Shown one piece after another: positions 17,677-18,364 of a DNA stretch of 25,963 nt (position 1 is the stretch's first letter; the number at the start of each line of letters is the position of its first letter). The stretch lies in UHGV virus genome UHGV-1408657, one strand, 5' to 3'. This stretch comes from a virus. Position numbers and translations under genes: made by a program. Below the pieces are notes generated by a model. The model saw only the letters and a program-made list of their open reading frames with translations, was not told where the DNA came from and made no database searches.

Positions 17677-17856
17677 ATGGGTCACGCATTAAAAAAGGCA
17701 GATCGCTTGTACATTCCGCCTCGTGACAAATCCACAGTGGCGAAACCTCGTGCAGCGATCAGCGAAGCATGTTCACATACTGGTCAAGTTAAAAATGCCT
17801 TTGAATTTGGATTTGCTCGTTACGAGAAGGCGATGGAAGAACTTTCAAAGGTCTGA
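17677..17856 (+). CDS. putative antitoxin / partner protein of the downstream Doc-family toxin (start uncertain)
   Basis: ATG 17677 with RBS GAGGGTG; stop 10 nt before the Doc start. Not recognisably Phd/YefM-like. The same frame stays open upstream to 17290, so a longer Cys-rich product starting at ATG 17332 or 17570 is possible. Confidence 0.4.
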   Translation: MGHALKKADRLYIPPRDKSTVAKPRAAISEACSHTGQVKNAFEFGFARYEKAMEELSKV

Positions 17857-17866
17857 GTAAAAACGG

Positions 17867-18364
17867 ATGACGATAGAGTATGTTGAAGGAATCAATTATC
17901 TTTCCATTGAAGATATAGTTTACATCAACAAGTCTCTGATCGAGACTCAGACGCCAAATGAACCAATAGGTGTGCTGAATCCGAATAACCTCAGTTCTTC
18001 ACAGTCCCGGCCAAGTACCATTCGATATTATGAGCAGACAGACGATATGTTTCGTCTGTCTGCTGTTCTAATTGAAAGTCTGATCCAGAATCATCCATTC
18101 GCAAATGCAAACAAACGCACCGCCATTATGACCGGTTACGTATTCCTGTTGCTGAATGGATATGAGCTTACAGCACCTAGCGATGAGGTCGTTACAATCG
18201 CAGAGGGTTTGGCTCGTAAGGATTATTCAGTGGATGATCTGGAAAATTGGTTATGCCACTGGTCTCGCGAGTATGATTCCAGAACATTATGTGCAACTGG
18301 CGGCAATTCGCTACAGGCTCTCGTGGCGACCTCGCAATACATTCGAATCATATCGAATAACTGA
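17867..18364 (+). CDS. doc: Doc (death-on-curing) family Fic/Doc toxin
   Basis: 165 aa; motif HPFANANKRTAIMTGYVFLLLNGYEL aligns with P1 Doc HIFNDANKRTALNSALLFLRRNGV as I recall it (Doc signature H-x-F-x-[DN]-[AG]-N-K-R); N-terminal LSIEDIVYIN resembles Doc ISPEELIALH; about 40 aa C-terminal extension relative to P1 Doc. Confidence 0.8.
   Translation: MTIEYVEGINYLSIEDIVYINKSLIETQTPNEPIGVLNPNNLSSSQSRPSTIRYYEQTDDMFRLSAVLIESLIQNHPFANANKRTAIMTGYVFLLLNGYELTAPSDEVVTIAEGLARKDYSVDDLENWLCHWSREYDSRTLCATGGNSLQALVATSQYIRIISNN

Follow-up and report, generated by a model that had tools for sequence, protein, structure and literature searches.

What kind of module is formed by two small genes in the tail operon of the virus genome UHGV-1408657, and which of the two is out of the ordinary? 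A preliminary description of this DNA, a stretch of 25,963 nucleotides referred to here as the window, identified the downstream gene as encoding a homologue of the Doc toxin, described its active-site motif as divergent and its upstream partner as unlike the antitoxin Phd, and suggested that a different target or mode of regulation might follow. The computational analysis reported here leads to a different emphasis: the toxin is ordinary and only the partner is new. We consider it probable that the two genes constitute a type II toxin–antitoxin-like pair, in which a Doc kinase of conventional type would be held in check by a protein of only 59 amino acids. The two open reading frames (ORFs) are as follows.

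17677–17856, plus strand: putative minimal antitoxin of 59 amino acids (phrog_2208 family), with an extended N-terminal arm containing IPxRDK and a C-terminal amphipathic helix (residues 34–58)
17867–18364, plus strand: Doc (Fic-fold) toxin homologue of 165 amino acids, with the motif HPFANANKR at residues 76–84 and a C-terminal extension at residues 128–165

That the downstream protein belongs to the Doc family is clear from several profiles. It matches TIGR01550 (‘death-on-curing family toxin’) across residues 12–130 with a score of 139 bits (curated cut-off 38.65 bits), PF02661, the profile initially put forward as a check on the assignment, with 46 bits (E 9.5e-12; cut-off 24 bits) and PHROG 577 (phrog_577, ‘Doc-like toxin’) with an E-value of 1.4e-48. 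Its best relative of solved structure is the Enterococcus faecalis Doc protein (9VZC_A, E 1.7e-14); the E-value for P1 Doc (3K33) is 3.1e-7. The motif was quoted correctly in the preliminary description (HPFANANKRT, against HIFNDANKRT in P1 Doc) but its core was read out of register as A-N-A. When the two proteins are compared column by column, I is replaced by P, N by A and D by N, so that the D-(A/G)-N core becomes N-A-N. Far from being divergent, HPFANANKR conforms exactly to the published Doc consensus HXFX(D/N)(A/G)NKR (PMC13034048). The E. faecalis protein (EFDoc), an active kinase, has the motif HCFYNANKR, also with an N-A-N core, and FANANKR is present in Listeria and Streptococcus Docs too. 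Residues H76, F78, N80, N82, K83 and R84 are invariant across 39 members of the subfamily. Judged by its motif, the Doc kinase appears to be catalytically intact and, since that motif is canonical for Doc, it gives no ground to expect the changed target that had been proposed.

The protein was also said to carry about 40 extra residues at its C-terminus. It is indeed 39 amino acids longer than P1 Doc (126 amino acids) but around ten of the additional residues are N-terminal and only around 28 lie beyond the end of P1 Doc. Thirty-eight residues follow the last aligned position, and conservation in this extension is confined to residues 128–142 (WLxxWSRxYDxRxLC), the last 20 or so being variable.

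The partner protein matches PHROG 2208, a family of unknown function, over its full length (E 1.4e-37). No family in Pfam or NCBIfam is matched, Phd/YefM included (there is no Pfam match at E ≤ 1), and when 1.84 billion cluster representatives were searched exhaustively by profile, just 33 related clusters were recovered, with proteins of 38–95 amino acids. The small ORF of the window is preceded by a Shine–Dalgarno sequence (GAGGG). In every copy, a GAGG or GGAG Shine–Dalgarno sequence is found 6–10 nt 5′ of the ATG and the ORF ends 0–23 nt before Doc, whilst dN/dS values relative to the window copy lie between 0.04 and 0.27. On these sequence criteria the small ORF is real, translated and under purifying selection. 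The possibility had been raised that it might be untranslated and the Doc protein catalytically dead; what is found instead is a set of translation signals, purifying selection and an intact, invariant motif.

Conserved features of the small family comprise the N-terminal IPxRDK, a central histidine and the C-terminal sequence QVxNAFxxxFxRYxKAxExLSKV. AlphaFold2 modelling of the partner (33-sequence alignment; pLDDT 81.7) predicts a single long helix spanning residues 34–58 (pLDDT ~95), with residues 1–33 predicted to lack regular structure save for a short helical turn at residues 3–5. Neither this model nor the Pfam and NCBIfam searches reveal a globular or DNA-binding fold. As far as the family-defining domain is concerned, therefore, the partner is unlike Phd/YefM, as first described: it has no match to that family and its first 33 residues are unstructured in the model. 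The wider view that it differs from known Doc antitoxins survives in part only. It is without an N-terminal DNA-binding domain but its C-terminal helix resembles the Doc-binding tails of antitoxins of the AbrB/MazE type, as discussed below.

How tightly are the two genes associated? In the window they are co-oriented on the plus strand with the small gene first and a gap of 10 nt. A scan of one genome per species identified 33 gammaproteobacterial loci, in Enterobacterales, Orbales, Pseudomonas, Halomonas, Kushneria and Marinobacter, with Doc proteins 38–90% identical to that of the window. At all 33 of these, and in three phage records as well (36/36 in total), the gene directly upstream of Doc belongs to the small family. 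The arrangement is repeated at 81 of 82 further viral and Escherichia coli loci, making 117 of 118 altogether; the one departure seems to reflect a miscalled start codon. Pairwise identities of partner and Doc are correlated (r = 0.92; Mantel 0/2000). More distant Docs (30–34% identity), from Streptococcus, Listeria, Symploca and Sphingomonas, have AbrB/MazE-type partners (PF04014) instead. The C-terminal extension of Doc follows the same division: every Doc with the small partner has it, and the AbrB-partnered proteins do not. Copies with around 70% identity occur in 125 of 5426 complete E. coli genomes (~2%), where RefSeq annotates the Doc gene and labels the partner ‘hypothetical protein’.

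The AbrB-type partners have helical C-terminal tails such as ...VLDEYDQAFRGLVDR and ...IFDEYDDVFKALVEK. In the solved complex of the E. faecalis antitoxin EFPhd with EFDoc (9VZC), the tail forms a bent helix inserted in the concave surface of Doc (PMC13034048). Profile–profile comparison (hhalign) of the small family with seven AbrB/MazE-type Doc antitoxins gave a P-value of 1.5e-4. With columns fixed to the first sequence, the partner helix (residues 35–58) aligned end-to-end with the tail (54–81) with a score of 21.7. Column shuffles scored 8.7 ± 1.7 (maximum 15.3; none of 200 as high; z ~7.7) and the reversed control 14.8. The hydrophobic residues of the partner helix (F42/F46/Y49/M53/L56, ending three residues from the C-terminus) have a spacing that mirrors the hot spots of Salmonella Phd (F56/M60/H63/L67/L70; PMC9207808), and in the alignment the partner's His34 stands opposite His54 of EFPhd, a coincidence that is not significant alone. 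A C-terminal Phd-like segment is known to be able to neutralise Doc by itself (PMC10440598; PMC9207808). The helix–tail match is a sequence similarity, not proof of common descent; as an indication that the partner helix is a Doc-binding element of known kind, it appears good but not conclusive.

Putting these observations together, a mechanism can be proposed for the pair. From its homology and intact motif, Doc would phosphorylate EF-Tu and arrest translation. The 59 amino acid protein would act as a labile neutraliser that holds Doc inactive by means of its C-terminal helix (residues 34–58), as suggested by synteny, co-divergence and the similarity of the helix to known tails; by analogy with the C-terminal helices of P1 Phd and E. 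faecalis EFPhd, this helix would lie in the concave groove of Doc. The IPxRDK arm and the Doc extension, which are linked by their co-occurrence only, probably provide either an additional subfamily-specific contact or a means of recognising the dyad sequences found in the leader of the cassette (see below). In a lysogen, the pair would probably be expressed from this leader. Its role might be to stabilise the prophage (addiction) or to abort infection by other phages once synthesis of the antitoxin stops.

The two genes are part of a larger mobile unit inserted among the late genes of a lambda-like siphophage. The nearest sequenced phage is Escherichia phage HK639 (83% identity across 62% of the window), and the host element of the cassette is an HK639-like lambdoid prophage, with the insertion lying between the tape-measure region and the minor tail gene M. 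The cassette and the genes that flank it are listed below.

17516–18430, plus strand: whole mobile cassette (moron) of ~915 bp with shared ends, comprising leader, small ORF, Doc gene and terminator
13362–16493: tape-measure gene, upstream of the pair and separated from it by two small accessory ORFs, one of them lipoprotein-like
18442–18792: homologue of lambda M (PF05939), downstream of the pair and followed by homologues of L, K, I and J

Salmonella phage SW-37 has the same unit, with shared ends (17511/17516 to 18430/18446) and 92–94% identity, as do viral contigs in which it occupies other slots; the SW-37 stretch is 92.6% identical to window positions 17516–18430 in a context that is otherwise unrelated. 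At least six positions are known. Besides the site seen here, between the tape-measure gene and M, the cassette has been found between K and I, downstream of J, next to the lysis genes, in the interval from G/T to the tape-measure gene and, in two Pseudomonas phages, adjacent to the integrase gene. The cassette is a horizontally mobile moron, and the original view of the pair as a phage-borne accessory module within the tail operon was sound. In SW-37 (locus L001, 5054–5852 of CP051275) single-base indels disrupt each of the two cassette genes. The indels all fall in homopolymer runs and are taken to be sequencing errors in a deposited, unannotated genome, which is probably a better explanation than that the genes are pseudogenes.

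The slot itself may hold other cargo. In HK639 (locus L084; record positions 15571–16589) the site between the tape-measure gene and M is occupied by a different pair, HK639_17/18, comprising a gene for a 190 amino acid hypothetical protein and a YafO-family toxin gene, indicating that toxin cargo is exchanged at this site. The E. coli copies of the cassette are located in the nin region of lambdoid prophages, directly after hokD. In E. coli O104:H4 2009EL-2050 (L085; record positions 2531500–2533228) and at a second E. coli locus (L086), a RelE/ParE toxin gene with a helix–turn–helix (HTH) partner adjoins the cassette, giving three toxin systems within 2 kb of the nin region. This moron architecture and the neighbouring toxin genes make a role in addiction or abortive infection plausible.

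Several elements in the nucleic acid of the cassette bear on how the pair might be controlled.

17516–17676, plus strand: 5′ leader of 160 nt, with candidate promoter elements TGgTATTAA (17570–17578) and TACAAT (17632–17637)
17589–17603 and 17616–17631: leader dyads ACCACT-aag-AGTGGT and GGATGT-gttt-GCATCC, respectively
18033–18064, plus strand: perfect 13-bp hairpin with a 6-nt loop inside the Doc coding sequence (codons 56–66), found by scan
18408–18432, plus strand: intrinsic terminator, AACCCGC-TTCG-GCGGGTT followed by a T-run, found by terminator scan

The arms of the leader dyads are kept, with differing loops, in SW-37 and at two further loci (L004 and L006). The terminator is identical in SW-37 and forms the 3′ boundary of the shared unit. 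The hairpin within Doc has a minimum free energy of −24.4 kcal/mol, compared with −7.5 ± 3.0 kcal/mol for 5000 synonymous recodings, none of which is as low. Several Enterobacterales copies retain its outer stem, and elsewhere there are hairpins that are weaker or displaced; it may have a part in controlling translation of the toxin or processing of the mRNA. In Providencia and Morganella copies (L010, L011, L014, L017 and L018), a near-consensus promoter (TTGACT ... TATAAT) is located ~60–95 nt 5′ of the small ORF. The spacer of this promoter, between the TTGACT −35 element and the −10 element, contains an 8-bp dyad, TAATGTAA-N6-TTACATTA, and at L014 and L017 both dyad arms carry a symmetric change (TAATGAAA/TTTCATTA). 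In sequence this dyad looks like an operator, although the module encodes no recognisable DNA-binding domain.

Upstream of the cassette, the two accessory ORFs 3′ of the tape-measure gene lie within positions 16493–17190. The first encodes 74 amino acids (phrog_2891) and the second a protein of 147 amino acids with a lipoprotein signal (lipobox LTAC; phrog_2320) that is followed by a terminator-like hairpin of its own (17234–17253). This ORF and its hairpin may represent a separate moron, encoding for example a superinfection-exclusion lipoprotein, and HK639 has a gene annotated ‘lipoprotein’ at the equivalent place. From this terminator to the cassette runs a spacer of ~260 nt (17254–17516) with a tandem 20-nt direct repeat at 17387–17426; the spacer is common to some contigs (L087, L105 and L113) but not to others. 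Inspection of the region 17254–17676 for a coding role (minus-strand ORFs of 119 and 32 amino acids and a long plus-strand ORF) gave no PHROG match, and there was no credible Rfam match in the same interval.

A number of results count against the interpretation of the pair as toxin and antitoxin. Single sequences do not reproduce the helix–tail match: set against the small family in hhalign, neither EFPhd nor P1 Phd nor the Salmonella Phd peptide gave a significant match, P1 Phd aligning in a non-equivalent register (E 0.022), and only the profile of seven AbrB-type partners exceeds the controls, which is why we regard the match as short of conclusive. The only PDB sequence retrieved with the small family was ribosomal protein S25, a chance hit (E 0.32). 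PADLOC returned no defence-system match for the partner, with weak Fic-domain matches alone for Doc, and a literature search on the protein accessions and on phrog_2208 found nothing relevant. The AlphaFold2 model of the Doc monomer (37-sequence alignment) is all-helical and of low confidence (pLDDT 56.5), so that no structural claim is made for the C-terminal extension. A consensus scan of positions 17516–17676 detected no sigma-70 promoter on the plus strand; the promoter is thus proposed by eye only, and any autoregulation is putative. Finally, the usual type II autoregulation is left unexplained by a partner that lacks a DNA-binding fold.

Three other explanations were weighed, all of them less likely than a toxin–antitoxin-like pair. 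Doc might have a substrate or chemistry other than phosphorylation of EF-Tu Thr382, with specificity set by its C-terminal extension and not by the motif. Consistent with this, the conserved segment 128–142 is specific to the subfamily and is absent from P1, E. faecalis, Listeria and Streptococcus Docs, similarity to characterised Docs is low (as the E-values for 9VZC and P1 Doc indicate) and Fic/Doc enzymes are known to vary in chemistry (PMC10440598). The catalytic motif, however, is invariant and of the Doc kinase type (K-R) rather than the Fic G-N-G-R type, the TIGR01550 match scores 139 bits over residues 12–130, and those Docs with the HxFx(D/N)(A/G)NKR motif that have been characterised so far all target EF-Tu or translation; for Salmonella Doc, toxicity has been shown to be relieved by EF-Tu T382A/V or by overexpression. 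A change of target is, on balance, unlikely. It is the partner rather than the toxin that is recast if the 59 amino acid protein is given a regulatory or adaptor role, for example as a DNA-binding arm peptide, as a leader for translational coupling or as a Doc-activating sensor, with Doc controlled in some other way. The classic type II arrangement of the genes, with the small gene first and a tiny gap, argues against this, as do their co-divergence, the match between the C-terminal helix and Doc-binding tails above shuffled controls and the toxicity to be expected of a Doc kinase whose motif is intact, were no protein inhibitor to restrain it. Even so, the partner matches no described antitoxin family, its first 33 residues are conserved (IPxRDK) despite their predicted lack of structure, the leader contains cassette-specific dyads and the Doc mRNA an unusually stable hairpin. 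We judge such a role for the partner to be quite improbable.

Might the module instead be a passenger, decaying or silent, that serves no function at present? Frameshifts in both genes of the SW-37 copy and the split Doc genes of the Proteus and Arsenophonus copies (L028 and L031) could be read in this way, but the SW-37 indels, confined as they are to homopolymer runs, resemble sequencing errors, the window copy is intact and purifying selection is strong. Conservation of both genes across Enterobacterales, Orbales, Pseudomonadales and Oceanospirillales likewise makes decay very unlikely indeed. The toxin–antitoxin-like pair is thus the reading that we prefer, and it is in its light that the cassette is compared with known systems below.

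Phd–Doc of P1 (PDB 3K33 and 3DD7) and of Salmonella shares with the present pair the kinase motif and, presumably, the Fic fold of the toxin, the order of genes with the small antitoxin first, carriage by a temperate phage and, probably, neutralisation via a C-terminal amphipathic helix. It differs in that Phd has an N-terminal DNA-binding domain of the Phd/YefM type, to which nothing in the partner corresponds, and the partner has no significant sequence match to Phd; in addition, P1 Doc is the shorter protein and lacks the conserved extension, and P1 is a plasmid prophage, whereas the cassette described here resides in an integrated lambdoid prophage. The AbrB/MazE-type modules, EFPhd–EFDoc (9VZC) and the Streptococcus pneumoniae Phd–Doc (SpeA3–SpeT3), are closer in some respects. 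EFDoc is the nearest Doc of solved structure, with the same N-A-N core, and the C-terminal Doc-binding tail of these antitoxins aligns with the partner helix from end to end. They possess a swapped-hairpin beta-domain (PF04014), however, for which there is no match here, its place being taken by a 33-residue arm that is predicted to be unstructured.

The present pair would follow the same principle as PanA(Phd-C)–Doc of Corynebacterium doosanense and other single-domain antitoxins (NetFlax, PMC10440598), in which a short, linear Phd-C-like helix is enough for neutralisation of Doc and other antitoxin domains have been found to be exchangeable or dispensable (PMC10440598). There is no Panacea domain in the present partner, which comes from a different sequence family. 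Class I Fic pairs (VbhT–VbhA, FicT–FicA/YhfG) likewise have a small helical protein of ~55–60 amino acids encoded upstream of a Fic-fold enzyme but here the enzyme has the Doc kinase motif and not the AMPylating Fic motif. Inhibition of the FicA type was considered for the partner and rejected, as the Fic-class inhibitory motif [ST]xxxE[GN] is present in none of 37 partners. As a genetic element, the cassette resembles other morons of lambdoid tail operons, such as HK97 gp15 and the YafO-type pair HK639_17/18, in being an independent promoter–gene–terminator unit (with a putative promoter in the present case) situated between late genes; its cargo, a Doc-type pair, sets it apart.

That Doc can pair with antitoxins other than Phd was already established (Leplae 2011), 9VZC being another case, and antitoxins reduced to their neutralising element have also been recognised (PMC10440598). 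What is new, as far as we have found in the literature, is a family of 59 amino acid proteins strictly tied, on a mobile prophage moron, to a subfamily of extended Doc proteins. One could go further and propose that phrog_2208 is a new minimal class of Doc antitoxin, derived from the AbrB/MazE type by loss of the DNA-binding beta-domain, that the IPxRDK arm and the Doc extension meet in a new interface, able either to recognise the dyad operators when toxin and antitoxin are in complex, and only then, or to sense a trigger, for instance infection by another phage, and that the moron is a portable abortive-infection switch moving among lambdoid prophage slots. This fuller scheme is speculative and, taken as a whole, rather doubtful.

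For the chemistry of Doc, the cassette changes nothing, as the active-site divergence claimed for it does not exist. Were the 59 amino acid protein confirmed as an antitoxin, on the other hand, a name and a function would be given to the ‘hypothetical protein’ beside the annotated Doc in ~2% of complete E. coli genomes, with E. coli O104:H4 and O121:H19 among the carriers together with many Salmonella, Providencia, Xenorhabdus and Pseudomonas prophages. It would also represent a natural Doc antitoxin pared down to little beyond the neutralising helix, and as such would be relevant to current peptide-mimetic work on Phd–Doc. More broadly, the many prophage slots occupied by the cassette and the presence of another pair in HK639 suggest that the moron sites of late operons may serve as exchange points for toxin and defence cargo.
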